Assembly (NCBI GenBank): GCA_964565065.1
Contig: CAZMDD010000132.1
Coordinates: 1-58,107 of the forward strand
Reading direction: 5' to 3'
From: an uncultured Caldilineales bacterium
GTDB taxonomy: Bacteria; Chloroflexota; Anaerolineae; J102
Length of the DNA stretch: 58,107 nucleotides
The position numbers and the translations under genes were made by a program. Below the pieces are notes generated by a model, which searched no databases, was not told the origin of the DNA, and saw only the letters and a list, made by a program, of their open reading frames with translations. Shown here piece by piece: positions 4,988-57,922 of the stretch (positions are counted from its first letter, which is position 1; each line of letters opens with the position of its first letter).

Positions 4988-5272
4988 GTTACTACTAAGG
5001 TAGCCCGGCTAGAAATCACTAAGACACGAAGCCACAAAGAAAGAAAAAGTGTCACTACTAAGGTAGCCCGGCTAGAAACCACGAAGACACGAAGCCACAA
5101 AGGCACGAAGAAAAGAAAAAGCTTTGAAATTCTTGGTGTTCTTAGTGTCTTTGCGCCTTTGTGGTGATTGAAGGCGGGTACGTTAGTCGTTACGAAAAAG
5201 TTTTGAAATGCTTGGTGTTCTTAGTGTCTTTGTGCCTTTGTGGTGATTGAAGTCGGGTACGTTAGTCGTTAC
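4988..5272 (+). mobile_element. MITE family A, outer copy interrupted by a second copy
   Basis: Starts GTTACTACTAAGGTAGCCCG, ends CGGGTACGTTAGTCGTTAC; 8-bp direct repeat TTTTTAGG at 4980-4987 and 5273-5280. Confidence 0.92.
5051..5193 (+). mobile_element. MITE family A, nested inner copy (143 bp)
   Basis: Full element; 8-bp direct repeat GAAAAAGT at 5043-5050 and 5194-5201. Confidence 0.92.
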
Positions 5273-5640
5273 TTTTTAGGATTCATTCTGGTTTGCATCT
5301 GGCGTTATTGCACAAAAGAAAACAGGAATGATTTATCCATAACTACTTGGGGCGAAAACCGCTGCCCGGTCTAATTTAATATCTTTCCGTACACAAATAC
5401 AGAAAACTCGGCGTGCAAGTCACACGGGCAACAATGACTCTAAACGGAAGACCAGGCAAAGGTGCGCCATATCTTCAGCGCCAAAATCAAATAGGCGGCT
5501 ACGTTTCAACTGTATGACTGCACAGGTGCTATCCTTGCAGTAGCGAATGCAACATGAGCGCATCGTGTCAACGATGGCAACCAACATCTCCGTAGTACCC
5601 GATGCCTGCTCAACTTCATCTCTTCCGATAGGTTTATCTC

Positions 5641-7113
5641 ATGCTTTACATCATTCGTCATTTTCGCATTCTTCTTCTCTCGATCACCCTTCTGTTTTTG
5701 GCTATCAGTGGCTCTCGTGCCAACGCGGATGAAGGTATTATTCGCCGCTCTCCCGAAGTTTCGTTTGGGGTTTATGTGTGGAAAGATGGCCCGCAGATTG
5801 CGGGCGGGCCCGAGCTGAAAGCTACCGGAGCGCAATGGGCCAGCGTTTTTATCGTCTGGTCAGATATCGAGGGCATGCCCGGCGTTTACAACTGGACGCA
5901 AACAGATGCGCTGCTCGATTCTATTAGCGATAATGGTTTCAAGACCATCGTCACCATCATTGGCAACCCGGATTGGGCAGCAGACACCATCTGCGGCCCC
6001 ATTCACGAAGAACAGCTCCCCCGTTTCAGCAACTTTTTGACCGCCATCACCCGCCGCTACAGCGCCCCCCCCTACAACATCAAACATTGGGCGCTTTACA
6101 ATGAACCAGATAATAGCAATGCTAACGGCTATTTTGTGAACTGGCTGGGCGGCTGTTGGGGTGGGCATCATGCCAACGCCCTGCCCGATGCCGGCGGTGC
6201 GGCCTATGCTCACATGCTCAGTTATGCCTATCCGGCCATCAAGGCGGGCGACCCCGAAGCCAATGTGCTATTGGGCGGACTGGCCTATGATTATTTCTCG
6301 GGCATCGATGAGGGAGGCATTTTTGACCCTCAATTCCTTGATGATATTTTGGCTGCGGGCGGCGGTGATTACTTTGACATCATCAATTTTCATTATTACA
6401 AAGCTTTTGACTGGCGCTGGCAGAGCGAGACCAACGGCATCCCCAATCCTTATCACCGAGGCATTAGTTCAAAGGGCTGGTATTTGCAAAACGAAGTTCA
6501 ACGCCAAACTGGTAAAAGCAAACCAGTGCTCTGCACCGAAGTAGGCGACGGCTCACGAGAACCCTCGGGAGAAGATCGTTCCGAGTTTCAGGCCCGCTAT
6601 TTGGTGCAAACCCTAATTCGAGGCTACTACGGCGGCATCTCGCCCACCATCTGGTTTGATGGTGTAGATGAAATGTGGCTGCCAGGTGGCAATACGATGA
6701 CCAGCATGGGCCTGCTCAACGATGATTTGTCGCCCAAAATTGCTTATCTTGCCTATCAAACGCTCACCCGCGAGCTGGCCGGCGCGCATTTTGTGCGCAC
6801 ACGCGAAGATTTAGGACTGCGTTTCGAGGGCTACGAATTCGAGGTGCAAGGACGCAGCAAGCTGGTGTTGTGGGATTCAGAAAGTGGACAACACACCATC
6901 TCTCTGGCCATCTCCAAGCCGGGGGGCACGCTACGTGTGGTAGAAAAAACAGGCCAGGATTTGAAAATCGTCGATGGTTCGGGCCTGGACAAAGATGGTC
7001 TGAAAAATGGTTATGTCGAGGTTATTGTCTCACGCAGCCCCCGTTATTACGAAGATTTAAGTATACCGCTACACACCGAACATCTGTTTTTGCCGGTTTT
7101 GCACACCAGATAA
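5641..7113 (+). CDS. Secreted clan GH-A glycoside hydrolase (GH39/GH5-like)
   Basis: Signal peptide; WSDIE..GVYNW, YNEPD acid/base, INFHYY, LCTEVG nucleophile; C-terminal HLFLPVLHTR. Confidence 0.8.
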   Translation: MLYIIRHFRILLLSITLLFLAISGSRANADEGIIRRSPEVSFGVYVWKDGPQIAGGPELKATGAQWASVFIVWSDIEGMPGVYNWTQTDALLDSISDNGFKTIVTIIGNPDWAADTICGPIHEEQLPRFSNFLTAITRRYSAPPYNIKHWALYNEPDNSNANGYFVNWLGGCWGGHHANALPDAGGAAYAHMLSYAYPAIKAGDPEANVLLGGLAYDYFSGIDEGGIFDPQFLDDILAAGGGDYFDIINFHYYKAFDWRWQSETNGIPNPYHRGISSKGWYLQNEVQRQTGKSKPVLCTEVGDGSREPSGEDRSEFQARYLVQTLIRGYYGGISPTIWFDGVDEMWLPGGNTMTSMGLLNDDLSPKIAYLAYQTLTRELAGAHFVRTREDLGLRFEGYEFEVQGRSKLVLWDSESGQHTISLAISKPGGTLRVVEKTGQDLKIVDGSGLDKDGLKNGYVEVIVSRSPRYYEDLSIPLHTEHLFLPVLHTR

Positions 7114-7136
7114 TGCCATTTTTCGCCGCTGGCAAT

Positions 7137-7165
7137 TTGCCAGCTACAGGCTTTCGTGCTAAAAT
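7137..7165 (+). promoter_or_regulatory. Sigma70-type promoter for rplS
   Basis: TTGCCA (7137-7142), 17-bp spacer, TG-n-TAAAAT (7160-7165). Confidence 0.65.
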
Positions 7166-7310
7166 ATCCAACTGCTCAAGGTGAACTGATTTAGCGCCGT
7201 TTGGCGCTTTCATTTTGTCTGTCGGGCAATCATTGTTGAGGATGACGGGGTAGTTGCCTGGTCAACACTCGTCCGCTCCAAAATCTATAAATTCAGACAA
7301 GGAAAAAACC

Positions 7311-7661
7311 ATGTCCTACTTATTGGAATCATTAGAAAACGAATATCTGAAAGAAGACGTTCCTGAACTCAGGATTGGCGATATCGTCAAAGTTTATAAC
7401 CGCATTGTCGAAGGTAAAAATGAGCGTGTTCAGGTCTACCAGGGCACAATTATCGGCATGAAAGGCACAGGCCCGGCCAAAGCCATCACCGTGCGTAAAA
7501 TTGGTGCTCATGGCATCGGCGTCGAACGTATCTTCCGAATCCATGCTCCCCGTGTCGAAAAAATCGAGATTGTCCGCCACAGCAAAGTGCGTCGGGCCAA
7601 ACTCTACTTCTTGCGCGATCGTGTCGGCAAGAAGGCCCGCCTGAAACAACTTCGCCGATAA
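7311..7661 (+). CDS. rplS: 50S ribosomal protein L19
   Basis: GDIVKVYNRIVEGKNERVQVYQG, GVERIF, KVRRAKLYFLR; AAGGA RBS before ATG 7311. Confidence 0.98.
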   Translation: MSYLLESLENEYLKEDVPELRIGDIVKVYNRIVEGKNERVQVYQGTIIGMKGTGPAKAITVRKIGAHGIGVERIFRIHAPRVEKIEIVRHSKVRRAKLYFLRDRVGKKARLKQLRR

Positions 7662-7686
7662 CCAACGGCATCTCTCTTTACTTTAC

Positions 7687-7718
7687 AAGAACGTGAGTCT
7701 CGGGCTCGCGTTCTTTTT
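7687..7718 (+). terminator. Intrinsic terminator after rplS
   Basis: AAGAACGTGAG..CTCGCGTTCTT hairpin followed by T tract. Confidence 0.75.
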
Positions 7719-7736
7719 GTTTTCGCCCCTAAAATC

Positions 7737-9176
7737 ATGATAAACTGGGGCATGAACCGGCTCGATACGCAATTCATCCAATTCGCCCGGCGCTGGGGCC
7801 TTGTGGCGGTGAGCAGCATCATTCCCCTGGGAGTGGCGTGGCAATTTCGTCATGCCATCGCCTATGACGATACCTACATCACCCTGACCTACGCCCGGAA
7901 CATCGCCCAGGGACACGGTTTTGTGTACAATGGCGGGCCCATCATGCTGGGAACCACCAGCCCATTGCTAGCTTTGTGGCTGGGCTTTTGGGGAGCGGTA
8001 CTGCAAACCAACAACATGGCCCAACTAGCCCTAATCACGGGCGCACTGGCTTGGGCTGGCACGGTCTGGCTGGCATTTTGGCTGGGCGAACAGCTTCAGG
8101 GGCCCGCTGCGGGCAAGTTAATGGCAATTTTAATGGCCACATTAGCCATCTGGCCACATGTGCTGCGAGCAGAATTTCCGCTACTCATGGCCTTCTCCTT
8201 GCTGGCGTTGGTGCTGAGCATGCGTCAACGTTACGGATGGGCAGGCATTTTCTTTGGATTGGCCTGCTTGACGCGCGGGGATGCGGCCCTGCTGGCCGGA
8301 CTTAGCGGACTGGCCATCCTTTGGCAAAAACGGCGCGTGCCCTGGAGGCTGGTGGGGGGATTCAGCCTGGTTCTGGCCCCGTGGTTTCTGTATGCCTCCC
8401 TCACCTTTGGCAATCCCCTGCCCGCCACGCTGGACATCAAACGGGCGCATCGGGCCTATGGCATTTGGCCGCACATCATCACAGGATTTTGGCGCTGGTT
8501 CCAGCGTACTGCCTGGCCCTTTCAGCTTCGCTTTGCGCTTACAGTGCTACTGGCGCCCATCGCACTAACTCGACGCAACTTGTGGGCTACGGTACTGCTG
8601 GGCTGGGGCCTGCTGCACGCCCTAAGCTACACATGGCTCAATGTTCCCTTTTACTTTTGGTATGTACTGCCCATCTTTGTCATAGCCAGTCTGGGCGCGG
8701 GCCTAACCCTGGCCACCTACAAACAAAAGAAACTGTCCGGAGTGCTACTCATGGTGCTGGTGGTTCTGGGCGGAGTGGGATTGAACAATGCCGTAGCCCG
8801 GGCCGAACGCGTCAATCCCCGATCACAAGCATATCTCGATACCGCAGCGTGGCTAAAAAACAACACCACGCCCGATAGCACTGTGGGCTACATCGAAATT
8901 GGCATCCTTGCCTACTTCTCCCAGCGCCCAGTCCTGGATTTGCTGGGCCTCACCACGCCCGGGGCAGCCACCTATCTGCAACAAGGAGACATCGGCCCTT
9001 ACTTCGAAACCCTCCGACCCGATTACTACATTCGCAACAGCGATATCGACAACTGGAAAATGTGCAAACAAATCAACAAACGCTCCTATTTTCAGCAAGC
9101 CTACCACCCCGTGGCCACCATTCCCCAGCGCCACCGGAAGCCCATCATCATCTACCAACGAACAGACAAGCACTAA
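7737..9176 (+). CDS. Multi-pass GT-C-fold glycosyltransferase (lipid-linked sugar donor type)
   Basis: YDDTYITLTYARNI motif after first TM, about 10 TM segments, C-terminal soluble domain with EIGILAY..VLDLLGL; start may be 7752. Confidence 0.72.
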   Translation: MINWGMNRLDTQFIQFARRWGLVAVSSIIPLGVAWQFRHAIAYDDTYITLTYARNIAQGHGFVYNGGPIMLGTTSPLLALWLGFWGAVLQTNNMAQLALITGALAWAGTVWLAFWLGEQLQGPAAGKLMAILMATLAIWPHVLRAEFPLLMAFSLLALVLSMRQRYGWAGIFFGLACLTRGDAALLAGLSGLAILWQKRRVPWRLVGGFSLVLAPWFLYASLTFGNPLPATLDIKRAHRAYGIWPHIITGFWRWFQRTAWPFQLRFALTVLLAPIALTRRNLWATVLLGWGLLHALSYTWLNVPFYFWYVLPIFVIASLGAGLTLATYKQKKLSGVLLMVLVVLGGVGLNNAVARAERVNPRSQAYLDTAAWLKNNTTPDSTVGYIEIGILAYFSQRPVLDLLGLTTPGAATYLQQGDIGPYFETLRPDYYIRNSDIDNWKMCKQINKRSYFQQAYHPVATIPQRHRKPIIIYQRTDKH

Positions 9177-9432
9177 CTTTTGCGACGCACAAAGGCAGAC
9201 ACGCCTTTTTGCCTTCCAGACACAACCGCTAGATTTACCGCAGCGGCTGGCAGCCCAGCACTTAGCGACATCGTCACAAAAATTCATTCATCAAAAGTGT
9301 AACGCTTTATAAATTTGCAACATCTAATAAATCCGTGGCTGGTGTTAAGGCGACATCTGCACCACTGGCCCGGATTTTATTTTGCCATTTTCTCATTCCG
9401 AGTTTCACATACATTAAGGAGTAAGCCAAATT

Positions 9433-10128
9433 ATGCCTCTTTTGAGCCCTGATGACGCCAAAGCTGTACAGCAGCAATTTGAAGAAAACATTTCCCGCCC
9501 GGTCAAAATGATTGTGGTCACCAGCCAGCAAAATTGCATGTACTGCAAAGAAGTTAAAATGCTGGCTGAAGAACTGGCCGACCTTTCTGACCTGATTGCT
9601 GTTGAAGCCTACGACATGCAGCAAGATAAAGCCATTGTCGAACTTTACAACCTGGACAAAACGCCCGCCATGGTGGTCGTCGCCGATGGCCGCGGCGATG
9701 AGCCCGACACCGACTTCGGCATCCGCTTCTACGGCATCCCCAGCGGTTACGAATTCATGTCCATGCTCGATGCCCTGAACACCGTGGGCAGCAATGGCAA
9801 AAACATCCAGCTTATGCCCGAAACCCGGCAATTTTTGGACAACCTGACCCAGGATATTCACATGCAGGTCTTCATCACCCCCACCTGCCCCCATTGCCCC
9901 CGTGCCGTCATGCTGGCACACCATCTGGCCTATGCCAGCCCCCGCGTCACCTCCGACATGGTGGAAGCAATGGAATTCCAGGAACTTTCCAACAAATACA
10001 GCGTTTACGGCGTGCCCCGTTCCGTCATCAACGAAACAGTTCACCAAGAGGGTGCCGTGCCCGAGCCCATGATGCTGCAAAAGCTGAAAGAGGCTGTGGC
10101 TGTCAGCAGCCCCGCCACACCCGTCTAA
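9433..10128 (+). CDS. Protein-disulfide oxidoreductase with two thioredoxin folds (PDO/AhpF-NTD-like)
   Basis: CMYC and CPHC motifs, RFYGIPSGYEF, VYGVP; AAGGAG RBS. Confidence 0.9.
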   Translation: MPLLSPDDAKAVQQQFEENISRPVKMIVVTSQQNCMYCKEVKMLAEELADLSDLIAVEAYDMQQDKAIVELYNLDKTPAMVVVADGRGDEPDTDFGIRFYGIPSGYEFMSMLDALNTVGSNGKNIQLMPETRQFLDNLTQDIHMQVFITPTCPHCPRAVMLAHHLAYASPRVTSDMVEAMEFQELSNKYSVYGVPRSVINETVHQEGAVPEPMMLQKLKEAVAVSSPATPV

Positions 10129-10173
10129 AACATGCTGGCCTGCGCCAGTTTAGATTAACGATTCACGTCCCCC

Positions 10174-10209
10174 AAAACGCTTCCATCCATGCAGATGGAG
10201 GCGTTTTTT
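10174..10209 (+). terminator. Intrinsic terminator after the PDO gene
   Basis: AAAACGCTTCCATC..GATGGAGGCGTTTTTT hairpin. Confidence 0.8.
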
Positions 10210-10355
10210 ATTGCCCCCTTCTTGCCCACCATTTTTGCAGAAACATGATACAATTCAAGTACCTGTACAACGCATAGTTCCCTTTTGGTCGCCAAGACAC
10301 GAATCAAGCCCGTATGCGCTGCTGGCATCGGCAACTTTATGAAAGGCATGATAGC

Positions 10356-11060: not shown

Positions 11061-11068
11061 GATGAAGC

Positions 11069-12307
11069 ATGCCTCATTTTGATTTCCTCCTCCCCGACGC
11101 CCGCCCGGTACACATTCGCGTCAATGACCGCGCCCTGACTATCAGCATCGACGAACTCAGCGTCTACACCTTTGATCTGGCGGGACGTTTGTTTGGCCTG
11201 TTCGACCACGGCATCAACTATCGTCGGGGCCTGGATGGCCGCATTCTGGCCCGATGGCGGGAGAAACAGGGGCAGCGGGCCCGGCGCTGGCTATCGCCCG
11301 AAGCACGCGACGCCCTGATGGTTACTGTGCAACAAGCGCTAAAACAGCTACAAGCCGCCATCCCCGCAGCCGCAGGCCCGCCACTGCATCCTCTACTGCA
11401 ACGGGCCATCAACTTCGACCACCAGGCCGACGCCCATGAATTCGCCCATGTTTACCGCCCGGTCAGCATCCTGCCCCCCGACCAATACCAGGCCCTGGTG
11501 CTGCAAGCCACCGAAGGCTGCTCCTTCAACACCTGCACCTTTTGCACCCTTTATCGCGACCGACCCTTCAAAATCCAATCGCCCGCCAGCTTTGCCCGAC
11601 ACCTGGATGAAGTCAGAGCCTTCTTCGGGCCCGGCATCACCCTGCGTCGCAGCCTCTTTTTGGCTGATGCCAACGCCCTCATCATCCCCCAAAAGCGCCT
11701 TTTGCCCCTGATGCAGCAGCTCGCCCGCGCGTTCCGCATCATGCCCGCGGGCCTGGACGCGCCCGCACGCCGCGCCTGGCAAACCGCACATCCCCAGGGC
11801 ATGACCGGCCTGTACGCGTTTGTCGATGGCCTGAGCGCAGAGCGCAAAAGCGCGGAGGATTTTCGGGAACTGCGCGCACTGGGTCTACGCCGCGTTTACA
11901 TCGGTCTGGAAAGTGGCCACGAACCCCTGCTGGCCTGGCTGCAAAAACCCAGCAGCGCCGCCGAAATGGCACAAGCGGTCGGACACATGAAACAAGCGGG
12001 CCTGGCCGTGGGCGTCATCGTGCTACTGGGTGCGGGCGGAGAACCCTTTGATGCCGGTCATGTGCAGGATACCGCCGCCATACTCAACGCCATGCCCCTG
12101 GATGCCACCGACATCATCTATCTGAGCCCCTTCCAGCCGGACATAGGCGCACCTTACCTGGCTTTGGCGCAAGAAGCGGGCATTGCACTGCCAACGCCAC
12201 AACTGATCGCTGCTCAACGACAGCGCCTACTGGCAGCATTGCGTCTGCCCGAGCCCCCAGCGGGTCCCAAGCGCGTGCCCTACAACCTGGCCGATTTTGT
12301 GTATTGA
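11069..12307 (+). CDS. Radical SAM protein with N-terminal extension
   Basis: EGCSFNTCTFC cluster motif, FLADANAL, RVYIGLESG, VIVLLGAGG. Confidence 0.88.
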   Translation: MPHFDFLLPDARPVHIRVNDRALTISIDELSVYTFDLAGRLFGLFDHGINYRRGLDGRILARWREKQGQRARRWLSPEARDALMVTVQQALKQLQAAIPAAAGPPLHPLLQRAINFDHQADAHEFAHVYRPVSILPPDQYQALVLQATEGCSFNTCTFCTLYRDRPFKIQSPASFARHLDEVRAFFGPGITLRRSLFLADANALIIPQKRLLPLMQQLARAFRIMPAGLDAPARRAWQTAHPQGMTGLYAFVDGLSAERKSAEDFRELRALGLRRVYIGLESGHEPLLAWLQKPSSAAEMAQAVGHMKQAGLAVGVIVLLGAGGEPFDAGHVQDTAAILNAMPLDATDIIYLSPFQPDIGAPYLALAQEAGIALPTPQLIAAQRQRLLAALRLPEPPAGPKRVPYNLADFVY

Positions 12308-12312
12308 AAAAT

Positions 12313-12454
12313 GTTACGACTAAGGTAGCCCGGCTAGAAACCACTAAGATACGAAGCCACAAAGGCACAAAGAAAGAAAAAGGTTTGAAATGCTTGGTGT
12401 TCTTAGTGTCTTTGTGCCTTTGTGGTGACTGAAGTCGGGGACGTTAGTCGTTAC
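12313..12454 (+). mobile_element. MITE family A copy (142 bp)
   Basis: 8-bp direct repeat TGAAAAAT at 12305-12312 and 12455-12462; the duplication includes the radical SAM stop codon. Confidence 0.93.
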
Positions 12455-12584
12455 TGAAAAATAAAAAAAGCTGGAGCACGGGAGCGGGAACGACACACAA
12501 CAGCAGCAAAATCAACCCATCGGTTGATAGCCAATCATCTTCCAGCCTGATGACAACGCACGCTCAGTATGCTAAACTGGGATT

Positions 12585-12735
12585 AAAACCTGACGAAAAT
12601 AGATTCGGCACTAAAAACGTCACCTTAACGGTAGCTATCTAAGTAGGTGATGCCATAGAAGTTGAAATGGAGCGATTCATCACTATCCAGAACACACCAC
12701 CAAGAGCACCAAGGCACGAAGAAAAAGCAAAAACC
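12585..12735. repeat. Fragments of repeat family B
   Basis: 12640-12735 resembles 41771-41865; reverse complement of about 12590-12622 resembles 41981-42013. Confidence 0.75.
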
Positions 12736-15742: not shown

Positions 15743-16373
15743 GCAGAAAATTCGTATTCTCATTATTGATGACCATTTTGTGGTGCGCGAGGGTCTCAAA
15801 GGCATCCTGGCCGGACAAGATGATTTCGAGGTGGTGGGTGAGGCTGCGGATGGCGAAACGGGCGTCAGCCTGGCCGCTGCCCTGCAACCTCGCGTGGTAC
15901 TTATGGATTTACGCATGCCCGGCATGAACGGCGTGGCCGCCATCCAAGCGATAAAAGCCCGGGGGCTGCCATGTGATATTTTGGTACTCACCACCTACGA
16001 TAGCGATGCAGACATCGTTCCCGCCATCGAAGCGGGAGCCACCGGCTACCTGCTCAAGGATGCACCGCGGGCCGATTTATTCCGGGGCATCCGGGCCGCG
16101 GCCCGCGGTGAATCCTACCTGGCTCCCACTGTAGCCTCACGCATGATGCGGCACCTGCGCACGCCCACATCCGCAGTGGTCAGCGCCCGCGAAATCGAGG
16201 TACTGCAACAAGTGGCCCGCGGTCTCAGCAATCGTGAGATTGCCCGAAATCTGCACATCAGCGAAGCCACTGTCAAAACACATCTGGTACACATCTACGA
16301 TAAACTGGCAGTCAAACATCGCACCGCCGCGGTTATGGTTGCGCTGGAAAAAGGACTTTTGCCCATGCCCTAG
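15735..16373 (+). CDS. NarL/LuxR-family response regulator
   Basis: IIDDHFVVREG, LMDLRMP, GYLLKD, SAREIEVL..GLSNREIA..TVKTH HTH. Confidence 0.96.
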   Translation: MTEQKIRILIIDDHFVVREGLKGILAGQDDFEVVGEAADGETGVSLAAALQPRVVLMDLRMPGMNGVAAIQAIKARGLPCDILVLTTYDSDADIVPAIEAGATGYLLKDAPRADLFRGIRAAARGESYLAPTVASRMMRHLRTPTSAVVSAREIEVLQQVARGLSNREIARNLHISEATVKTHLVHIYDKLAVKHRTAAVMVALEKGLLPMP

Positions 16374-16415
16374 CGCACAGGCGCCCGCACATCATGCGGC
16401 CGTGTGCGCACCTCC

Positions 16416-16536
16416 GCCCGCGGCTGAAGCCACGGGCTACCAAGGCAAAGCCCCGCTGGGGCTGCCCCCTCAGGTGTCTGCTGCGCAGCCGGTCAGTGGG
16501 TCAGAGGTCAGAGGCCAGAGAGTCAGTGATCAGTGG
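16416..16536 (-). repeat. Copy 2 of the 81-bp hairpin repeat plus TGACCTC-type heptamers
   Basis: Reverse complement of 108-188 followed by about 6 heptamer units. Confidence 0.9.
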
Positions 16537-16750
16537 TAAACCGCCAGCCCCTCCCACCGTGAGGCCCCAGCCGAAACGGGGGGAGGCTGGGAGGGGGGCA
16601 CAGGCGCCCGCTCAACCGTCATCAACCGCCACCAATCTCCCCTGAATTTTCAAATCCCCTCCAAGACCCGCCCGCCCGCCGCCCACGCGGTTGAGCCGTC
16701 CCCCGTGCCAATGCCAAGCCCCGCCTTTCCGCTGCCCGAGCCGGGCGCCC

Positions 16751-17717: not shown

Positions 17718-18668
17718 TCAAAATTCGAAATAACGCTCCAGCAACTTGCCCACATCCAAATTGCCGCCCGAAACAATCAAACCAACCTTCTTGCCCTGAA
17801 AACCCTCCTTTTCGCGGAGCAACGCGGCCAGGGGCACTGCCGCCGAGGGCTCGGCAATAACTTTCAAACGTTCCCAAATCAGACGCATCGCCGCCACAAT
17901 CTCTTGCTCTTCGACCCGGATGATGCGTTGAACATGCTGCTGGATGATGGGGAAATCGACATCTCCCAACTGCGTTTTTAAACCATCGGCAATGGTGTTG
18001 GTGGTGATATTGGATTGAATGACACCACTTTGTAAAGAACGATAAGCATCATCGGCCTCCAAGGGCTCCCCTCCGATGACCTGGCAATTGTCACCAAAAG
18101 CGTGGGCAGCCAACGCGGTGCCAGCCAGCAAACCACCCCCGCCTACGGGCGCAAAAATCACATCCAAATCGGGCTGTTCCTCCAGCAATTCCTTGGCAGC
18201 AGTCCCCTGGCCCAAAATAACATCGAGGTTATTGGATGAGTGGATGAAGGTTGCGCCCTCGCGTTGCTGAATGTTACGGGCTGTTTGTTCCCGGGCGGAC
18301 AAAGTGGGCTCACACTCGGTGATGATGCCGCCATAACCTCGGACAGCATCCTTTTTAACTTGCGGCGCGGTGGCGGGCATGACGATATAAGCTTTGATGC
18401 CCAGGCTATGCGCGGCAAACGAAAGCGCCTGCGCAAAATTCCCCGAAGAATGTGTTACGACACCTCGCCGACGCTGCTCATCATCAAGCTGCATGATGGC
18501 ATTGGTGGCACCACGCATCTTGAATGCACCAGTTTTCTGAAAATTATCGCACTTGAAAAAGAGTTGGGCTCCGGCCAGCTCATCGAGTAACCTTGATGTA
18601 AGAACGGGCGTGCGATGAATGTAAGGGGCAATGCGTTGGTGGGCTGCAATCAAATCTTGTTGATACAT
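17718..18668 (-). CDS. PLP-dependent serine racemase/dehydratase-family enzyme (fold type II)
   Basis: FQKTGAFKMRG PLP lysine, THSSGN, GQGT, PVGGGGL, EPSAAV, SGGN; no C-terminal ACT domain; start moved to ATG 18668. Confidence 0.9.
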   Translation of the reverse strand: MYQQDLIAAHQRIAPYIHRTPVLTSRLLDELAGAQLFFKCDNFQKTGAFKMRGATNAIMQLDDEQRRRGVVTHSSGNFAQALSFAAHSLGIKAYIVMPATAPQVKKDAVRGYGGIITECEPTLSAREQTARNIQQREGATFIHSSNNLDVILGQGTAAKELLEEQPDLDVIFAPVGGGGLLAGTALAAHAFGDNCQVIGGEPLEADDAYRSLQSGVIQSNITTNTIADGLKTQLGDVDFPIIQQHVQRIIRVEEQEIVAAMRLIWERLKVIAEPSAAVPLAALLREKEGFQGKKVGLIVSGGNLDVGKLLERYFEF

Positions 18669-18897
18669 AAGGTTGTCGGTGATGAGTGGCCAGTGGGAAG
18701 GGTGGTTGTTGGCTCGAATTATACGGCCCCTGATGCCGGCTGTCAACAAGCGTTCAACGGGCCTCTGTGATGCGCTTCATTTTGGGCGGCTCATGCTCGC
18801 ACGCCCGCACATCATGCCCCCGCGCGGCCCGAGCCGAAACACTTCGGATGACGCAATAGTTACCAAAATAGCAGCTTTATGGTAAAATATGACTGTT

Positions 18898-19917
18898 ATG
18901 CACACCCGAATCGCACCAGAAGAAAAGCCGTTAGGCGTCATCGAAGCGTTGCAACAAGGCTTCGATTTTCTCAACCATCATCTTTGGCTCATCCTGCTGC
19001 CAATACTTTTAGACCTGTTTTTGTGGCTGGGCCCGCGGCTTTCCATGGCCACACTCATCGAGCAACTGGTTGACACCCTGTTCAATCAGCCAGACCTGCC
19101 CGAAGCGCTGGCCTCAAACGCAAAAATGGTCAGCGAAAACTTTAACAGCCTGGGAGCCGACTTTAATTTGCTGGCGCTGCTGGCTGGCCCGTTCACCGGC
19201 TTGCCCTCCCTTTTTGCGCGCCTGGACTTCATCCCCCGTGTGGCCATACCCCACACGCTCATCAACCTCACCTCCTGGCAAAGTGTGTTACTGTGGCTAA
19301 GCTTTCTGATTCCGGTAGGGATTTTGGTGGGCAGCCTGTGGTTGACACTGGTCGTTTTTGCCTATCGAAACGAACCGCTGGCCATGCGGGCCTTTTGGGG
19401 CCGCTGGGGCTGGGTGTGGCTTAATGTCAACCTTTATCTCATCGTGCTTTTCATCGCCATCGTGCTGCTTAGTCTCTTCTTTGGAACCCTGGCTGCCCTT
19501 TTTATGGCTTTGATGGGGTCGGTGGGCGCCACGCTGTTTAGCATTCTTTGGATTCTTTTCATTGGATTCTCAGTGTGGCTGAGCATCGGGCTCTTCTTTG
19601 TGATTCCGGCAGTGGCGCTGGATGGTGTAAACCTGGCCAGCGCCACATGGCGTAGCTTGAACGTGGTCGGGCGCAACGCCCTGAGCACTATGGGATTCCT
19701 GCTCCTGATTATTCTCATCACCGAGGGATTTTCCCGCATCTGGTTGCAGATGAGCACCCAACTTTGGGGTGTGTTGGTTGGCATTCTGGGAAATGCCTAC
19801 ATGGGTACGGCAATCATGGCTGCCACCTTGCTTTTTTACCAATCACGCTATCAGGCGTGGCAAAAGAAACGAGCGATGGTCATTAGCCAGCGCTCCGAAC
19901 AGAACGACAACGCCTAA
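18898..19917 (+). CDS. Hypothetical integral membrane protein (about 7 TM)
   Basis: Hydrophobic ORF; ATG 18889 abuts the -10 box so ATG 18898 is preferred. Confidence 0.75.
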   Translation: MHTRIAPEEKPLGVIEALQQGFDFLNHHLWLILLPILLDLFLWLGPRLSMATLIEQLVDTLFNQPDLPEALASNAKMVSENFNSLGADFNLLALLAGPFTGLPSLFARLDFIPRVAIPHTLINLTSWQSVLLWLSFLIPVGILVGSLWLTLVVFAYRNEPLAMRAFWGRWGWVWLNVNLYLIVLFIAIVLLSLFFGTLAALFMALMGSVGATLFSILWILFIGFSVWLSIGLFFVIPAVALDGVNLASATWRSLNVVGRNALSTMGFLLLIILITEGFSRIWLQMSTQLWGVLVGILGNAYMGTAIMAATLLFYQSRYQAWQKKRAMVISQRSEQNDNA

Positions 19918-19935
19918 ACTTCTGCCCCAGGCTGA

Positions 19936-21966
<2,031 letters not shown>

Positions 21967-22000
21967 TTAGGTGGCAGCGTGGGAAAATTGAAAAATCAGC

Positions 22001-22037
22001 AAACAGCCGGGCCTTCGATGCAAGTCCCGGCTGTTTT
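22001..22037. terminator. Hairpin terminator between convergent gyrB and yhhQ
   Basis: AAACAGCCGGG..CCCGGCTGTTTT. Confidence 0.75.
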
Positions 22038-22094
22038 GTCGTCAGAAAAGCGTACGCTCGCGCTCGCTCGCATCATGCGCCCGCGCACCTGGCA

Positions 22095-22877
22095 CTAATT
22101 CAAATGGAAGGGGTTGAAATCGGTGTCCCGGTCAAAGTAGTCTTCTGCTTCCTTGCGTTTGAGAAAATTGACAACAAGATAAGTAAGCGGCGTGAACAAA
22201 AATTCGATGCTGACCTTGAAGATGTAATTGGCTACAATGAGGCTAAGAGCAATGGCCCAGGGAAAAACGCCCAAAAGGGTGGCAATAAGCACAAAAATGA
22301 TGGTGTCCACCCCCTCGCCCGCCAGAGTCGAGCCCATGGTGCGCAGCCACAGCCAGCGCCCGTTGGTGCGCAATTTGAGCTTGGCCAGGATGAACGAGTT
22401 ACTGAATTCGCCCAGCCAATACGCTGCCAAGCTGGCGATGATGATGGCGCCACTGCTGACGCCGCCCAAAATAGCATCGTAGGTGGCTTGCCCGAATTGC
22501 GCAGGATGGGTGGGCTCGGGGAGGTCGGGCATGGTTCGGGCCATGTTTTCATACACAAACGTGCCCCACATGGGGTCACCGGGCAAACGCCCCAGCAGCC
22601 AGAAGGTTAGCGACATGAGTGCTGCTGCGACAAAACCAATCCAAATGACCTTGCGGCTGCGGGCGTAGCCATAAACTTCGGTGAGAACATCGCCAAAGAT
22701 GTAAGCCAACGGGAAGAGCAGCGTGCCACCATCAAAAGCCAGGCGCAGACCAAAAATGCTCACGCCCAGGTCGATAAGTTTGGCAGAGCTGGCAATGTTG
22801 CTTAGCAGAAGCACCGTGACAAAAAGAGCCATCACGACATCAAAATAGCGATAGCTACGGCGAGAAGTTGTGGACAT
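22095..22877 (-). CDS. yhhQ: Queuosine precursor transporter (VUT/YhhQ family)
   Basis: LLLSNIASSAK, DGGTLLFPLAYIFGDVLTEVYG, WLRTMGST..GEGVDT, FKVSIE..TPLTY. Confidence 0.92.
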   Translation of the reverse strand: MSTTSRRSYRYFDVVMALFVTVLLLSNIASSAKLIDLGVSIFGLRLAFDGGTLLFPLAYIFGDVLTEVYGYARSRKVIWIGFVAAALMSLTFWLLGRLPGDPMWGTFVYENMARTMPDLPEPTHPAQFGQATYDAILGGVSSGAIIIASLAAYWLGEFSNSFILAKLKLRTNGRWLWLRTMGSTLAGEGVDTIIFVLIATLLGVFPWAIALSLIVANYIFKVSIEFLFTPLTYLVVNFLKRKEAEDYFDRDTDFNPFHLN

Positions 22878-22981
22878 GAAATTACCTGGTAAAGTGAAAT
22901 CGGCGGTACTGTGTTACTATCGATTGTTGTTTTGGCGTGGTTGCCGAAAGCATGACTGGCAGCAACTGCCAAACCGACCCA

Positions 22982-24412: not shown

Positions 24413-24558
24413 GGTGAATTCCGTTAGAATGGGGAGAGAGGTAATTCCGGGGATGCACCCGATTGTGGCATAATATCAGAAAATTGTTATGTCTTCAAAT
24501 ATCGCCTTAGCACCGATTGCATTTTTCACTTCTCAGCCATCTTTCTTTCACCTGTCTT

Positions 24559-26061: not shown

Positions 26062-26197
26062 GGTGTTTGTGTTGAATTTGGAGATTCGGTGGAGATCGGT
26101 GGCGGTTGATGGCGGTGGGGCGGGCGCGGACGCATGACGCGCTCACCCTTCTTTTTCATTCTCGCAGATTCGCAGCCTTGGCATAAGACAACCAACA

Positions 26198-26953: not shown

Positions 26954-26957
26954 TAGC

Positions 26958-27632: not shown

Positions 27633-27944
27633 AAAAGAAACTCCTGATAAGATGAATGACTTGTCCACAGTGGCAACTCTTGTTATCATGTAACCCAATA
27701 AATCTGCGACCGATGTTACAGGTGCAGTAGAGCGTTACCATTGCCACGAACTTGATGACTCGAAAATTTACTTGACAAATGCGCCAAGGGAGAAAAGTAT
27801 ATCACGGAGCGCCAAACCGGGCCATATTTCCGGAATTCTGAAAAAACTGTCATCCAGATTTGCCGCAGACTTCATTCACTTTTCACCTGCAAGCATTATA
27901 CTTGAGAATACCCTACCACCCTATCGCTCATTCACAATACCTTT

Positions 27945-35464: not shown

Positions 35465-35469
35465 TCATC

Positions 35470-39028: not shown

Positions 39029-39042
39029 TTCATAAAAAGATG

Positions 39043-39184
39043 GTTACTACTAAGGTAGCCAGGCTAGAAACCACTAAGACACGAAGCCACCAAGGCACAA
39101 AGAAAGAAAAAGGTTTGAAATGCTTGGTGTTCTTCGTGTCTTTGTGCCTTTGTGGTGATTGAAGTCGGATACGTTAGTCGTTAC
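39043..39184 (+). mobile_element. MITE family A copy (142 bp)
   Basis: 8-bp direct repeat AAAAGATG at 39035-39042 and 39185-39192. Confidence 0.93.
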
Positions 39185-39209
39185 AAAAGATGGCGCTTTT
39201 GATGCTTTG

Positions 39210-41248: not shown

Positions 41249-41767
41249 GGCGAAAAACGTCACAAGTTATCCGATTTTTGGTAGTGGTTCGAATTTGACT
41301 GACGCCATGGCATCTTGGTGGCAAAAAATGAGTAGAAGGCTCTCAACCGTGGTTGCATCAAATCGCGCAACATCAGTTACAAAAACAAAGATGGATGGCG
41401 TCAATCATTTCTTGGTCTCTAACTGTCGGAACACCAAAGCTTTTTCTCGCTTCAAATGTGCAGTCATTTAACAGTTATGTTATCCTTATAGTGGCGAAGA
41501 ATTAAATACCAAGCTCATCCCCTTAATGCCATGGCAAAGCATAATCCTTACCCGTGACCAAACATTTATGGGTCTGTCTCTAAAGCAAAATGCCGCTAAT
41601 GTTGAAAAAGCTATTCGCAGATAAACCTGGTTGTAAGCATTGCACTTAAGTAACTATTCACGTTCATCTGGAAAGAACTACTAGGCCACAAGACATGAAA
41701 AAAGGAAAGGAATCCCTTGTTGCCTTCCTTTTTCTTGGTGCCTTTGCGGCAAAATGTGGGCCAAGAC

Positions 41768-42069
41768 CTGTTAAGTAAGTGATGCTATGAAAGTTGAAAT
41801 GTAACGGTTCATCGCTATCCAGAACATACCACCAAGGTACAAAGAAAAAGGAAAGAAACCATCAAGAAAATCTGTGCCATCTGTGTAATCTGTGGTTGAC
41901 ATGGTTTAACCATAGAATCCAGAGCGCACCACCAAGAGCACCAAGAAAAATCTGCGAAATCTATGTCATCTGTGGTTACCATGACGAATTTTAGCGCCAA
42001 ATCTATTTTCGCCGTTCGCCGGGATGCACAGCGCTTTTCTTAAGTTTCAAATGTGCATCTACTTAACAG
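41768..42069. mobile_element. Repeat family B element with terminal inverted repeats and internal short repeats
   Basis: Left CTGTTAAGTAAGTGATGC, right GCATCTACTTAACAG; internal ACCACCAAG and ATCTGTG..ATCTGTGGTT repeats; no TSD found; second right-end copy near 41440-41474. Confidence 0.6.
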
Positions 42070-45352: not shown

Positions 45353-45566
45353 TGTTTACTGGGTAACATTCTTTGTTTTGCTCACAGATTCTCACAGAGA
45401 ATGCACCAATCTCCCCTGAATCTCCAAATCCCACGCAAAAAACCCGCCGCCCTGCAGTAAATCGGTTGTTTTTTGCCGGGCGCCCGCCATCGTGCGCCCG
45501 CTCCCGCACATCATGCGCCCGCGTGCGCGCCCGCCCTCAACCGGCAACCCTGACCCGCACCCCGGG

Positions 45567-53227: not shown

Positions 53228-53263
53228 AAAGGGCTCCGGGAAAGGCGAATAGTTACGAAATGC

Positions 53264-53461
53264 GTAACGACTAAGTGGTTTGCAATAAGTTTCCTAATTC
53301 CAAATTGCGAGCTTGTCATTTTTCCATGACGAAGATGGACCCAATTAGACGAATATCAAAGCCTGCTTTTTAGGGCAGAAAAGTCGCACATCAGGTTCTC
53401 TTTGTGCCTTTGTGGCTTCGTGGCTTAGTGGTTTCTAGCCGGGCTACCTTAGTGTCGTAAC
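53264..53461 (-). mobile_element. MITE family A variant (198 bp) with a different internal segment
   Basis: Minus strand begins GTTACGACACTAAGGTAGCCCGGCTAG and ends TTAGTCGTTAC; 8-bp direct repeat CGAAATGC at 53256-53263 and 53462-53469. Confidence 0.88.
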
Positions 53462-53502
53462 CGAAATGCAAAGAATGGGAGGGAAGGTGGCAGTGTCAGG
53501 TG

Positions 53503-53581: not shown

Positions 53582-55804
53582 CTATGGGGACGGAGCAAAT
53601 GAGTCTGTGTTGGGGATTGGGCTGTTGCTGGCGCTCGGAGGCGCGGGCGCATGATGCGCGGGCGCATGATGCGCGGGCGCGAGGGTGACTTGGGTGTCGT
53701 AGAAGGTGGGACTGCCGCCCATGTCGGTTTGGGCTTGCGAGGTGAGCCAGTTGATGTTGCGGGTGTCGGGGCTGAGTTTGGCCCACCAGATGGTGGGGGT
53801 GAGCAGGGTTCCGGGGATGATGTCGGTGGTAACGCGGGCGCTGAGCTGGATTCGGCCGTGCTGGTTCTGGAGGATGACAGTTTGGCGGTGGTGGATGTTG
53901 CGGGCGCGGGCGTCGTCGGGATGTATCCACACCAGGGGTTCTTCTTCGCGGTGTCGAAAGCGCTTGAGGTTGGCGAAGGTGGTGTTGAGGAAGTTGTGGG
54001 CGGGTGGGGAGATGAGGGTGAGTGGGGCGTCGGGGGTTGGTGTGCTGTTGGCGGTTTGTGGCGCTTGCAGCCAGTTGGGAGGCGTCCAGGTTGGCAGGGG
54101 CGGGTAGCCGTCGTCGGCCATTTGTTGGCTATAAAGTTGGCATTTGCCATCGGGGGTCGGAAAGCCGCGGGCAAAGGGGGTGTAGGGTTGGGGCAGATTG
54201 AGACGGACAAAGCCTTCATTCAGCAGGCGCTGCCAGGTGATGGTTTGCATGGTGGGGTCGGTTTGGCTGGCCAGGAAGTTTTGCAGGAGGGTGGTGTCAT
54301 CTTGCCGGAAGTGGGCATCGGTGAAGCCCATGGCCCGGGCAAGGTGACGGAAGATTTCGCTGTTGGGCAGGCTTTGGCCCACCGGGGCGATGGCGGGACG
54401 GTTGAGCGCGAGGTAGGTGTGTCCGTAGGGTTTGAGGATGTCCCAGTGTTCGAGCTGGGTGGTGGCGGGCAACAGGTAGTCGGCGTAGTCTGCAGTGTCG
54501 GTCTGGAAGTGTTCGAGGACGATGGTAAGCAGGTCTTCGCGAGCCAAACCGGCGTGAACGGCGTTTTGATCAGGCGCCACCGCGGCGGGGTTGCTATTGT
54601 AGATGATGAGGGCTTTGATGGGCGGGCCGGCCTCTGCGGGTGCGGGGCTGGGGTCGATGGGTCTGGGTGCATGATGGGCGCGGGCGCGGCGGGCGGGATC
54701 AAGGCTGAGTGCGTCGCCCAGGCGAATCATGTTGAGGGTGCGGGGTTGTTGGCCGTGCAGAAGGTCGGGGCGTTTGAGGGGGGTTTTATCCAGATGAAAG
54801 GCGCCGCTGCTGCTGAGCAGGACGCCTCCGCCTGGGTAACGCCAGTGGCCGACCAACGCGGGCAGTGTGGCGATGTTCCGCACGGCCATGCCGCCGGCGG
54901 CGTGGCGTTGCAGGCCATAGTTGATGCGGATGGCAGCGGGCCGGGCCGCTGCGTAGGCTTTTGCCAGGGAAATGATGCGCTGGGCGGGGATAGTGGTGAT
55001 GTTTTGGGCCCACGCGGGTGTAAAATCTCCAATATGGTTTTGTAGTTGCTCGAAGCCGGTGGTGTACGCCCGAACGTAGGGCTCGTCGATGAGGTTTTGG
55101 GTGATGATGACGTGCATCATGGCCAGGGCCAACGCGCCATCGGTGCCGGGGCGGATGGGGATCCATTCGTCGGCGGCGCGGGCGGTGCGGGTGCGAGCGG
55201 GGTCGATGACGATGACGGGGGCGCCTTTTTTGCGGGCCTGCTGGATGAAGGGCCACAGGTGCATGTTGCTGCTGAGGATGTTACTGCCCCAGATGAGGAT
55301 GAGGCGGGCGTGGGCGAAGTCTTCGGGCGCGGGCCCGATGACGCGTCCGGTGACATATTGAAAGCCTTCGAAGCCTGCTTCGGAGCAGATGGTGCGGGCG
55401 AGACGGGTGGCTCCCAGGCGGTGGAAGAAGGGTTTGGCCATGCCTTCACCTTGCAGCAGGCCCATGGTTCCGGCGTAGGAGTAGGGCATGATGGCCTCGG
55501 GCCCGTGGCGGGCGCTGATGGCTTGCAGGCGGGCGCTGATTTCGGCCACAGCCTGCTGCCAGCTAATGGGCCGAAATTGTCCTGCGCCTTTGGGGCCCAC
55601 ACGTTTGAGGGGCGTGGTGAGGCGGTCGGGATGGTAGGTGCGCTCCAGGTAGCGATCTACTTTGCCGCACAGCCGTCCCTGGGTGATGGGATGCTGGGGG
55701 TGGCCCTGGATGCGGATGGCGCGTCCGGTGGCGGGGTCAGTGGTGATTTGCCAGGAGCAGGTGTCGGGGCAGTCGTGCGGGCATACGCCGGTGATGGTAG
55801 GCAT
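53582..55804 (-). CDS. Molybdopterin (bis-MGD) oxidoreductase, DMSO-reductase family, cytoplasmic
   Basis: [13 protein letters not shown] Fe-S motif, [44 protein letters not shown]; no Tat signal; start at ATG 55804. Confidence 0.93.
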
Positions 55805-56014: not shown

Positions 56015-56119
56015 CACATCGCCTCGAAGGAAAGAGTCGCCAAAGACCGGGGTGAAAAGATCATTGCCATTGTAGCATGGCGTGCATGTCGGGCCAAGAG
56101 CCAACCGCCTCGAGGGCGG

Positions 56120-56280
56120 GGCTTTTCAAAGTCGCACCGTGGACGCGTCGCTGGTTCACAGACCCGGCTCGAAACACTCTTCTAGCCTTGCGCTAAGGCG
56201 AGTCTGTCCCCTGGCGAAGCGCCCTTTGGGCTAGATCTACGGTCGTCGGAATGACGTGTCCACCTGACTTTGAAAAAGCC
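56120..56280. mobile_element. Repeat family C, MITE-like element with about 28-bp imperfect terminal inverted repeats
   Basis: GGCTTTTCAAAGTC...TGGACGCGTC versus reverse complement GGCTTTTTCAAAGTC...TGGACACGTC; single copy, no TSD seen. Confidence 0.5.
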
Positions 56281-56436
56281 TTGATTTCGGGGGTGGGCGA
56301 GTTGACGACGTAATTGAGGAGCTGTATGATAGTTATCTTGATCCCCTGACCTGACTACCGCCAATCTTGCAGAAAAAATTTGCATGGCTGATTTCTGGCT
56401 CTGGGGCAAAAAGTTCATCGATACTCAGGAGGTTTC

Positions 56437-57768
56437 ATGGAATCCCCGAACAATCAAACTTCACCCTATCACAATCCTGTAACCCTGCTGCAGCGGCTCA
56501 TTCAGTTCGATACCACAAACCCTCCCGGTCGCACCACTGAATGTATCGCCTTCATCAATAACCTGCTTACCGAGGCCGGGATCGAGACCAGGATTCTCTC
56601 CAAGTCACCGGAACGCCCCAACCTCATCGCCCGGTTATCCGGTCATGGCAATGCGCCACCGCTACTTCTCTATGGCCATGTAGATGTCGTCACCACCGAG
56701 AACCAGCAGTGGCGATATCCTCCATTCGAGGGGAAAGAGACTGAAGGCTTTATATGGGGGCGTGGCGCCCTGGATATGAAAGGCGGCGTGGCCATGATGC
56801 TGGCTGCGTTTCTGCGCGCCAAGCGAGAGGACCTGAAGCTGCCGGGCGACGTTATCTTCGTTGCAGTAAGTGACGAAGAAGCAGGTGGTGATTTTGGGGC
56901 CAGATTCCTGGTGGAAGAACATGCAGATCTCTTCACCGGCGTACGCTATGCCATCGGCGAATTCGGCGGGTTCACGCTACATGTAGGCAATAAGCGATTT
57001 TACCCAATCCAGGTCGCTGAGAAACAAATCTGTTGGATGAAAGCGACTTTCCGCGGGCCTGGTGGCCATGGCTCCATGCCCGTGCGCGGCGGAGCGATGG
57101 CCAAGATGTCTGACTTTCTTCGGAAAATTGATCGCCATCGTCTGCCCGTTCACATTACACCGGTGGCGCGTGCCATGCTTAAAGCAATGGCATCCTCTCT
57201 TGGCGGGTTAAATGGCCTGATGCTTGGCCAATTAACAAATCCCATCTTGACCGATAAAATGCTTGATTTGCTTGGCGAGCGTGGCCGTGTCTTTGATGCA
57301 ATGTTACACAACACGGTCAGTCCCACGATCTTACATGGTAGCAATAAGATCAATGTGGTGCCTGGTGCGGCGTCGGTGGAGCTGGATGGACGATTGCTCC
57401 CCGGCTATAAACCAGACGATATGATTGCCGAGTTGCGCCAAATCGTCGGAGACGAGGTTGAACTGGAAGTGATGCGATATGATTTGGGCCCAGCCGAATC
57501 TGACATGGGACTATTCGACATGCTGACTGACACCTTGCGTCAGCTTGATCCCGAGGGCGTTCCAGTTCCTCTTCTACTGAGCGGCGTGACAGATGGACGC
57601 TTCTTCTCTCGGCTTGGCATTCAGACCTATGGCTACTTGCCCATGCCTCTGCCCGAGGACTTCAATTTTACGCGGACAATTCATGCAGCAGACGAACGTA
57701 TTCCAGTTGAGGCGTTGGATTTTGGCGCAAATGCCCTTTACAAAGTCTTACAACGTTTCGGTGCATAG
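56437..57768 (+). CDS. M20/M25/M40 metallopeptidase (ArgE/DapE/aminoacylase family)
   Basis: YGHVDVV, WGRGALDMKGG, SDEEAG, GEFGG, GGHGSMP, TDGRFF, IHAADER; CAGGAGG RBS. Confidence 0.95.
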   Translation: MESPNNQTSPYHNPVTLLQRLIQFDTTNPPGRTTECIAFINNLLTEAGIETRILSKSPERPNLIARLSGHGNAPPLLLYGHVDVVTTENQQWRYPPFEGKETEGFIWGRGALDMKGGVAMMLAAFLRAKREDLKLPGDVIFVAVSDEEAGGDFGARFLVEEHADLFTGVRYAIGEFGGFTLHVGNKRFYPIQVAEKQICWMKATFRGPGGHGSMPVRGGAMAKMSDFLRKIDRHRLPVHITPVARAMLKAMASSLGGLNGLMLGQLTNPILTDKMLDLLGERGRVFDAMLHNTVSPTILHGSNKINVVPGAASVELDGRLLPGYKPDDMIAELRQIVGDEVELEVMRYDLGPAESDMGLFDMLTDTLRQLDPEGVPVPLLLSGVTDGRFFSRLGIQTYGYLPMPLPEDFNFTRTIHAADERIPVEALDFGANALYKVLQRFGA

Positions 57769-57779
57769 ACTCTTTTTGA

Positions 57780-57922
57780 GTTACTACTAAGGTAGCGCGG
57801 CTAGAAACCACTAAGACACGAAGCCACAAAGGCACGAAGGAAAGAAAAAGGTTTGAAATGCTTGGTGTTCTTAGTGTCTTTGTGCCTTTGTGGCGATTGA
57901 AGTCGGGTACGTTAGTCGTTAC
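57780..57922 (+). mobile_element. MITE family A copy (143 bp) without matching target duplication
   Basis: Both ends intact; flanks CTTTTTGA and CATGGAAG do not match. Confidence 0.9.

Follow-up and report, generated by a model that had tools for sequence, protein, structure and literature searches.

A high-copy family of miniature inverted-repeat elements with IS66-type tips in an uncultured Caldilineales bacterium

A short non-coding repeat stands six times in contig CAZMDD010000132.1 of an uncultured Caldilineales bacterium (assembly GCA_964565065.1; Chloroflexota), which raises the question of what kind of element it is, which enzyme moves it, and whether it is still mobile or has acquired a role in the cell. 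The whole stretch of 58,107 nucleotides, referred to here as the window, was analysed together with metagenomic sequences carrying the same repeat, which we call family A. This family is a miniature inverted-repeat transposable element (MITE), real and well formed, and constitutes ordinary selfish DNA of ~143 bp, non-coding and bounded by terminal inverted repeats (TIRs) of ~20 bp. The tips that it shares with single-gene insertion sequences (ISs) of the IS66 family, found in the same types of samples, make it very probable that a transposase of the ISBst12 group mobilises it in trans.

Anatomy of the copies in the window

All six copies reported in a preliminary description of this DNA were found at the positions first given, and their limits and target site duplications (TSDs) were set from the flanking sequences as follows.

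4988-5050, plus strand: left part of the outer MITE copy, interrupted by the nested copy; TSD TTTTTAGG of the outer copy at 4980-4987 and 5273-5280
5202-5272, plus strand: right part of the outer MITE copy, which measures 134 bp in total without the insert
5051-5193, plus strand: nested MITE copy, 143 bp, within the A-rich loop of the outer copy; TSD GAAAAAGT at 5043-5050 and 5194-5201
12313-12454, plus strand: MITE copy, 142 bp; TSD TGAAAAAT at 12305-12312 and 12455-12462
39043-39184, plus strand: MITE copy, 142 bp; TSD AAAAGATG at 39035-39042 and 39185-39192
53264-53461, minus strand: chimeric MITE variant, 198 bp; TSD CGAAATGC at 53256-53263 and 53462-53469
57780-57922, plus strand: MITE copy, 143 bp; no TSD, flanks CTTTTTGA / CATGGAAG

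Perfect 8-bp direct repeats lie exactly at the tips of five of the six copies, the number claimed previously, and the density proposed for the family, about one copy per 10 kb, agrees with the window, of which the repeat makes up ~1.5%. The size of ~142 bp given in the preliminary description holds for four copies (142-143 bp) and fails for the outer copy (134 bp) and the minus-strand copy (198 bp). Such recurrence greatly exceeds what chance would produce, as the 20-nt left end matched 5 times in the window (0.00 expected), a degenerate 15-nt tip 10 times (0.08 expected) and an inner 16-mer 25 times (0.78 expected). The elements have a G+C content of 43-46%, compared with 56% for the window, and the five canonical copies are 89-94% identical in pairwise comparisons. 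Besides, when the insert and one GAAAAAGT are removed from the outer copy, its two halves align end to end with intact copies, leaving it one 8-bp unit shorter than these, and the number of such units varies among copies. Because the outer halves rejoin like intact copies, the nesting represents a real insertion and no assembly artefact.

The left tip reads GTTAC(T/G)ACTAAGGTAGCCCGGCT; the right end reads GTAACGACTAACGTA-CCCGACT in reverse complement, and its tip in the inward direction is GTAACGACTAACGTACCCGACT. The two ends match at ~18/23 bases with one gap, in line with the imperfect TIRs described before. Three to four 8-bp units of the type CACNAAGN form the left arm and their complement forms the right arm; Tandem Repeats Finder assigned to the arm a period of 8 with up to 4.0 copies, the units being 8-bp periodic and of the form CACNAAG. 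Both arms are joined by the A-rich centre AAAGAAAAAG, and the strand folds as a single long hairpin, with an RNA folding energy of -58.4 kcal/mol against -33.2 ± 3.7 kcal/mol for shuffled sequences (z = -6.8) and z = -6.6 for the DNA fold. The internal inverted repeat that had been predicted to form a long RNA hairpin is therefore present. No open reading frame (ORF) of at least 60 amino acids is contained within any of the copies (134-198 bp). An ATG in the right arm of the 57780 copy opens a 64-residue ORF (57858-58052) that reads out into the flank and whose first 22 residues (MLGVLSVFVPLW...) are hydrophobic; this ORF is probably meaningless, yet the MITE can donate a start codon.

The 198-bp variant resembles the other copies only over its first ~62 bp and last 12 bp. 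Its left ~62 bp correspond to family A apart from 2 bp inserted into the tip, its right 12 bp read inward as GTAACGACTAAG, and its interior is unrelated to family A. The interior holds another dispersed motif, CCTGATGTGCGACTTTTCTGCCCTAAAAAGCAGGC, which contains a small hairpin (within 53264-53401) and was captured by the chimeric variant. The same motif stands alone at four loci of the metagenome-assembled genome (MAG) CAZYSY01 (L023 4832-4872, L025 419-460, L030 7096-7132 and L034 5772-5812), each time followed by GACGAA-rich sequence. The possibility that the right half of the variant is the end of an autonomous element was rejected, since it did not match IS ends and part of it is this separate motif.

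Spread of the family and insertion sequences with the same tips

The window sequence was found in three metagenomes labelled hydrothermal vent or epibiont, and its SbcD protein is closest to proteins named Caldilineae or Caldilineales at NCBI. A scan for the tip pattern covering one genome per species recovered, among the matches listed, at least 24 stretches of CAZYSY01 (uncultured Caldilineales bacterium), as well as the Anaerolineae MAGs WFTO01 (one family-A copy), JALWDV01 and DRQW01. All 12 complete family-A copies outside the window for which both flanks were available have a perfect 8-bp TSD, bringing the figure for complete copies in and outside the window to 17 of 18. The TSD octamers are 75% A+T, with hardly any C at the five central positions, while the 20 bp on either side of the TSD are 58% A+T and the window overall is 44% A+T, indicating that the target is an AT-rich octamer.

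Words of the MITE are almost confined to hydrothermal-vent, subsurface and epibiont metagenomes. In three runs, the word depth of single-copy sequence of the window genome was ~40, 20 and 5, compared with 17,750-28,000, 7,300-10,250 and 3,100-4,000 at MITE positions, an excess of 100 to >400 times over the flanks (two to three orders of magnitude) that is not assignable to one genome because CAZYSY01, a different organism, shares these samples at depths of ~90, 21 and 1-2. Every MITE interrupts the short-read contigs, which end inside it. A carrier genome can fairly be said to contain hundreds of copies, consistent with six copies per 58 kb.

Members of the IS66 family typically have TIRs that start with GTAA and generate 8-bp duplications. 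An IS with the tips of family A was delimited in L027, a 1714-bp contig binned as Thermaceae, in which the tip occurs twice, in inverted orientation, 1560 bp apart. The element (118-1677) has perfect 17-bp TIRs, GTAACTACTAAGGTAGC, and a single ORF of 485 amino acids (213-1670) whose stop codon lies inside the right TIR. This ORF matched the Pfam families DDE_Tnp_IS66 (2.5e-45), zf-IS66 and DUF6444, and the NCBIfam model transpos_IS66 (IS66 family transposase) scored 317-322 bits against a cut-off of 180, the L027 ORF reaching 317. Relatives were sought as metagenome contigs encoding 47-100% identical proteins, and 31 related full-length elements were delimited, all of which start and end with GT(A/G)ACT.... 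The closest lineage comprises L038, L117 and L118, with 80% protein identity to L027, and the left end of these elements (GTAACTACTAAGGTAGCCCA) matches the MITE left end at 18/20 bases. Overall, the MITE and IS tips are identical at 16-17/17 bases, the MITE beginning with GTTAC on the left and GTAAC on the right and the IS with GTAAC on the left. Additionally, the L059 element, located in a 24.9-kb contig, is flanked by a perfect AT-rich 8-bp TSD (TTATTTTC), and the repeats flanking the L091 element agree at 6/8 positions.

The IS66-like ends recognised in the preliminary description thus have their counterpart in elements with GTAACTACTAAGGTAGC tips that encode an IS66-family transposase, and elements with matching ends that carry a transposase gene do exist. 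The partner of the TnpA/B/C type that had been expected was not borne out, as the matching elements have one ORF; 1560 bp with one ORF leave no room for tnpA and tnpB, which places them in the ISBst12 group of the family. The nearest plasmid transposases of cultured bacteria, from cyanobacteria, Ca. Chlorohelix, Bacillus, Geobacillus and Deinococcus, are annotated as 'IS66 family transposase' and are 42-50% identical to the L038 transposase; no clear match to the tips was seen on the IS66-family element of the Ca. Chlorohelix plasmid.

In the mechanism that we propose, an IS66-family DDE transposase of the ISBst12 group, supplied by single-ORF elements of ~1560 bp with GTAACTACTAAGGTAGC at both tips, would recognise the tips common to IS and MITE and move the MITE in trans. 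An 8-bp stagger between the cuts in the target strands would produce 8-bp duplications upon insertion, and AT-rich octamers would be the preferred targets. In a genome of 56% G+C, this preference combined with selection against hits in genes would direct insertions to short intergenic gaps and also to the A-rich loops of other copies, hence the nesting. What the data directly demonstrate is the build of the element, its duplications and target bias, its high copy number, its division into subfamilies, the nesting and the occurrence of tip-matching IS66 elements in the same sample types; from the same tips we infer that the enzyme moves the MITE, reading ~17-20 bp of shared tip, AT-rich octamers and an 8-bp stagger, which we consider very likely. 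The genome of the window presumably holds or held an autonomous copy.

Several observations weigh against this explanation. No convincing similarity between MITE and IS was found beyond ~20 bp of the tip, so that the MITE did not arise from the IS by simple deletion, and the 57780 copy has no TSD. Most of the full-length elements, which come from contigs of 1.5-2.3 kb, lacked a TSD there, a feature that we tentatively attribute to chimeric assembly of repeats. A search of the window for an IS66-type transposase returned none, in accordance with what had been reported before, and no autonomous copy was placed in the window's own genome. Moreover, when contigs of the three metagenomes were placed on 40 kb of the window, none bridged a MITE site without the element; every site was filled, and no presence/absence polymorphism was seen in the three samples. 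The three window-bearing metagenomes (X1-X3) do hold a related IS, ~82% identical in nucleotides to L027 and ~91% to the 3' part of L038, which stops at the same terminal base; its depths of 18, 39 and 16 do not keep a constant ratio to those of the window genome (40, 20 and 5), nor do they scale with CAZYSY01 (90, 21 and 1-2).

The flanks of the closest elements offer hints of their host. The flank of L117 (1968-2054) carries a short intergenic repeat (..GGCCCTCAGCCCTGATTTCAATCGGC..) common to five CAZYSY01 loci (L018 3591-3665, L033, L030, L003 and L023), the TGACCTC heptamer array with which the window starts recurs in the flank of L038 (1947-1997), and the gene beside L118 (FGE-sulfatase) has its only named relatives, 42-54% identical, in Chloroflexi and Anaerolineales, a weak hint. 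This circumstantial evidence suggests that bacteria related to these carry the L038 lineage, and supports co-occurrence, not residence on the same chromosome.

Age, gene context and alternative explanations

The copies in CAZYSY01 differ from their own consensus at 1-3 of 143 positions (98-99% identity), and the nested 5051 copy differs from that consensus at 3 positions (98%). The 12313, 39043 and 57780 copies share certain variants, and their identity is 92-94% to the CAZYSY01 consensus and 94% to one another. Judging from these identities, the nested, younger-looking copy belongs to a subfamily amplified recently, and the other copies in the window are older. Consequently, the proposal that the element was recently active applies to the nested copy and to the sister MAG, and not to the remaining copies, which have diverged further and occupy sites that are filled in three metagenomes.

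One filled/empty pair is available, the nested insertion compared with intact copies taken as the 'empty site'. A search for empty sites through SbcD homologues yielded no orthologous pair, the upstream gene not being conserved among relatives. In relatives whose SbcD is 70-76% identical, different MITE-like elements bearing this type of tip lie 38-66 bp upstream of sbcD, and two further relatives have no MITE-like element ahead of that gene.

The alternative that survives best is that the copies in the window are fossils, immobile relics of a past amplification in a genome that now lacks a working transposase. The divergence of the 12313, 39043 and 57780 copies agrees with it, as do contigs from three samples that break at the same MITE sites without any contig skipping one, a window devoid of transposase genes, and the depth of the related IS, which does not track the window genome. 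However, the nested copy, 98% identical to the young consensus, must postdate its host copy, the sister population CAZYSY01 in the same samples carries copies that are 98-99% identical to their consensus, and the related IS was present in every sample examined. Altogether, we regard this alternative as a possibility to be taken seriously, although we lean against it.

Every copy in the window is intergenic and surrounded by ordinary housekeeping genes. The 12313 copy starts 5 bp past the stop of a radical-SAM ORF (11069-12307), whose TGA is contained in the TSD at 12305; the 39043 copy lies 14 bp past the stop of a histidine-kinase ORF and 40 bp ahead of the sbcD start; the 57780 copy lies 11 bp past the stop of an M20 peptidase ORF; and the 198-bp variant is situated 36 bp upstream of the gltB start. 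A preference for gene 3' ends or terminator regions had been suggested, and three of five sites are indeed 5-14 bp past a stop codon; the terminator part found no support, since no terminator-like or promoter-like motif was detected in or abutting the MITE at the two sites scanned. The intergenic placement is explained by the preference for AT-rich targets.

Co-option of the long hairpin by the cell, either at the RNA level within operons (as a terminator, attenuator, mRNA stabiliser or processing site) or as a protein-binding array, would be favoured by the strong fold (-58 kcal/mol, z = -6.8) and by the proximity of copies to stop or start codons (5-40 bp) and their position between genes on the same strand. 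Besides, a whole MITE copy with foreign flanks is contained in a 235-nt metatranscriptome contig. MITE copies may reach RNA libraries, as expected inside operons, and contaminating DNA is possible, so that read-through or contamination could explain that contig; any palindromic MITE automatically forms such a hairpin. No family matched the window at the Rfam gathering threshold, the two scanned sites lacked the motifs mentioned above, and a comparison of 16 copies detected a double change in 1 of 46 predicted pairs, with an unfavourable covariation term (+1.21). There is no sign of selection on RNA structure beyond the palindromic build, and a cellular role is therefore considered unlikely. 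At least two other repeat families of these genomes also contain 8-bp units of the CACNAAG type. It would be an equally long shot to suppose that the hairpin serves vent Caldilineales throughout the genome as a module binding RNA or protein, or that the octamer arrays are subterminal sites revealing a requirement of ISBst12-group transposases.

Mobilisation by another transposase family with 8-bp duplications (for example IS1595, ISL3, IS6/IS26 or IS256), the match to the IS66 tips being coincidental, could draw on the fact that the similarity between MITE and IS extends over only ~20 bp and that the autonomous copy has not been placed in the same genome. We consider it very improbable, given that 16-17 of 17 tip bases are the same as in the IS, that the same tip bounds 31 independent IS66-family elements, and that the loci retrieved contained no different transposase bounded by these ends. 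To our knowledge, none of the ISfinder consensus ends of these four groups starts with GTAAC. Finally, the notion that family A is no transposon, and instead a palindromic repeat akin to repetitive extragenic palindromes or bacterial interspersed mosaic elements (REP/BIME) or an assembly artefact, is hardly tenable, because the intergenic, palindromic and high-copy character of the repeat and the breaking of short-read contigs at it are outweighed by defined TIR tips, by copies in independent assemblies and MAGs and, decisively, by exact 8-bp duplications of unrelated sequence at 17 of 18 copies (chance ~1.5e-5 per site), which refute it.

Other repeats and comparison with known systems

The window and its relatives contain further repeats. 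A (TGACCTC)n heptamer array occupies positions 1-118 (15.7 copies), with its complement at 16497-16537, and both adjoin GC-rich units of ~60 bp (121-185 and 16420-16478) that are mutually reverse complementary; the word depth of the heptamer repeat, ~2200-2900 against 40, identifies it as a dispersed repeat with tens of copies. GC-rich intergenic segments are common to two loci in swapped order (16367-16412 and 45486-45531, 78% identical; 16630-16658 and 45404-45432, 93%), and the word depth of the region 16.0-16.7 kb is ~2200 against 40. A repeat of ~85 bp (TAAGTAGGTGATGCC...ATCCAGAACACACCACCAAG) is found at 12640-12730, 41734-41850 and 41917-41945, two copies being 86% identical, and is followed by CACCAAGG/CACGAAGA octamer units resembling the interior of family A; at 41.7 kb it has inverted CTTGGTGCCTTTGCGG on both sides. 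The depth of this repeat is ~300-870 against 40, and it may represent a further small element, mobile or structured.

Two kinds of repeats lie within ORFs. Long repeats based on CCCACG/CCCACA hexamers inside large ORFs (28006-29053, 35215-35484 and 36468-36780) probably encode Pro/Thr-rich linkers of secreted or multidomain proteins, and a perfect 15-bp tandem repeat (GCGCGGGCGCATGAT x2.7; 53641-53680) near the 3' end of a molybdopterin oxidoreductase ORF has one unit fewer in the contigs of two samples, indicating a copy-number polymorphism.

At least three more MITE-like families with an ISBst12-type tip and different interiors were observed in related Anaerolineae/Caldilineae MAGs (L008, L010, L019 in JALWDV01, L021 in DRQW01, L032, L120/L121 at ~1926-2129 and L124 at ~3800-3935). 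One of these further families, also of 143 bp, starts with GTAACTACTAACGTAGCCCTGTTCACTCAACACGGATACGAGG and is present in JALWDV01 and DRQW01, and some of the elements lie directly upstream of sbcD. These genomes hence harbour several MITE families that have ISBst12-type tips.

A literature search, which did not cover ISfinder, returned no paper on an IS66- or ISBst12-derived MITE or on such a MITE in Chloroflexota. The present analysis names the repeat, and its parent family, behind the fragmented short-read assemblies of vent Caldilineales, whose contigs end within it, and indicates that several MITE families, present at high copy number in uncultured Chloroflexota, originated from single-ORF elements of the ISBst12 group of the IS66 family. 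Knowledge of the family helps to annotate and assemble these genomes, and its insertion sites and subfamilies could act as strain markers. The general picture of bacterial MITEs is unchanged, and these results will not surprise specialists.

The likeness to bacterial MITEs such as Correia of Neisseria, Nezha of cyanobacteria, MITEPsy of Pseudomonas syringae and the IS982-related elements of Cardinium is extensive, as these are small, high-copy and intergenic, have TIRs, TSDs and hairpin potential, contain no ORF, borrow their TIRs from ISs and show nesting (PMC3189936; PMC9769881). Family A differs from them in its parent IS family, in its host, an uncultured vent Caldilineales of the Chloroflexota, and in arms built of 8-bp periodic CACNAAG units. 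The canonical IS66 elements, with TnpA, TnpB and TnpC, are similar to the autonomous relatives described here in their GTAA-type ends, 8-bp duplications and TnpC-type DDE domain, whereas the elements found here measure 1560 bp and have one ORF, without room for tnpA/tnpB.

The closest known system is the ISBst12 group, which includes ISBst12 of Geobacillus stearothermophilus and ISDge4 of Deinococcus geothermalis. The latter, for which transposition was observed experimentally, encodes one transposase between TIRs GTGACTACTCAGCA / GTAACTGCTCAGCA and has an 8-bp direct repeat (PMC12898284). Members of the group have a single tnpC-like ORF, tips of the form GT(A/G)ACT(A/G)CT and an 8-bp direct repeat, features that the full-length elements delimited here also show, the direct repeat being perfect at L059. 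Both sides have one type of tip, GTAACTACTAAGG in our elements versus GTGACTACTCAGCA / GTAACTGCTCAGCA in ISDge4, the target duplication is 8 bp in both the MITE and ISDge4, and the autonomous relatives likewise have a single ORF of ~485 amino acids with DDE_Tnp_IS66 and zf-IS66 and without TnpA/TnpB. The element of the window differs from this group in being 143 bp long and non-coding, with only ~20 bp of each end in common. The transposition chemistry of the ISBst12 group has barely been studied. A tip sequence of ~17-20 bp appears to be enough for mobilisation, and these MITEs offer natural minimal substrates that could serve to study its transposases.

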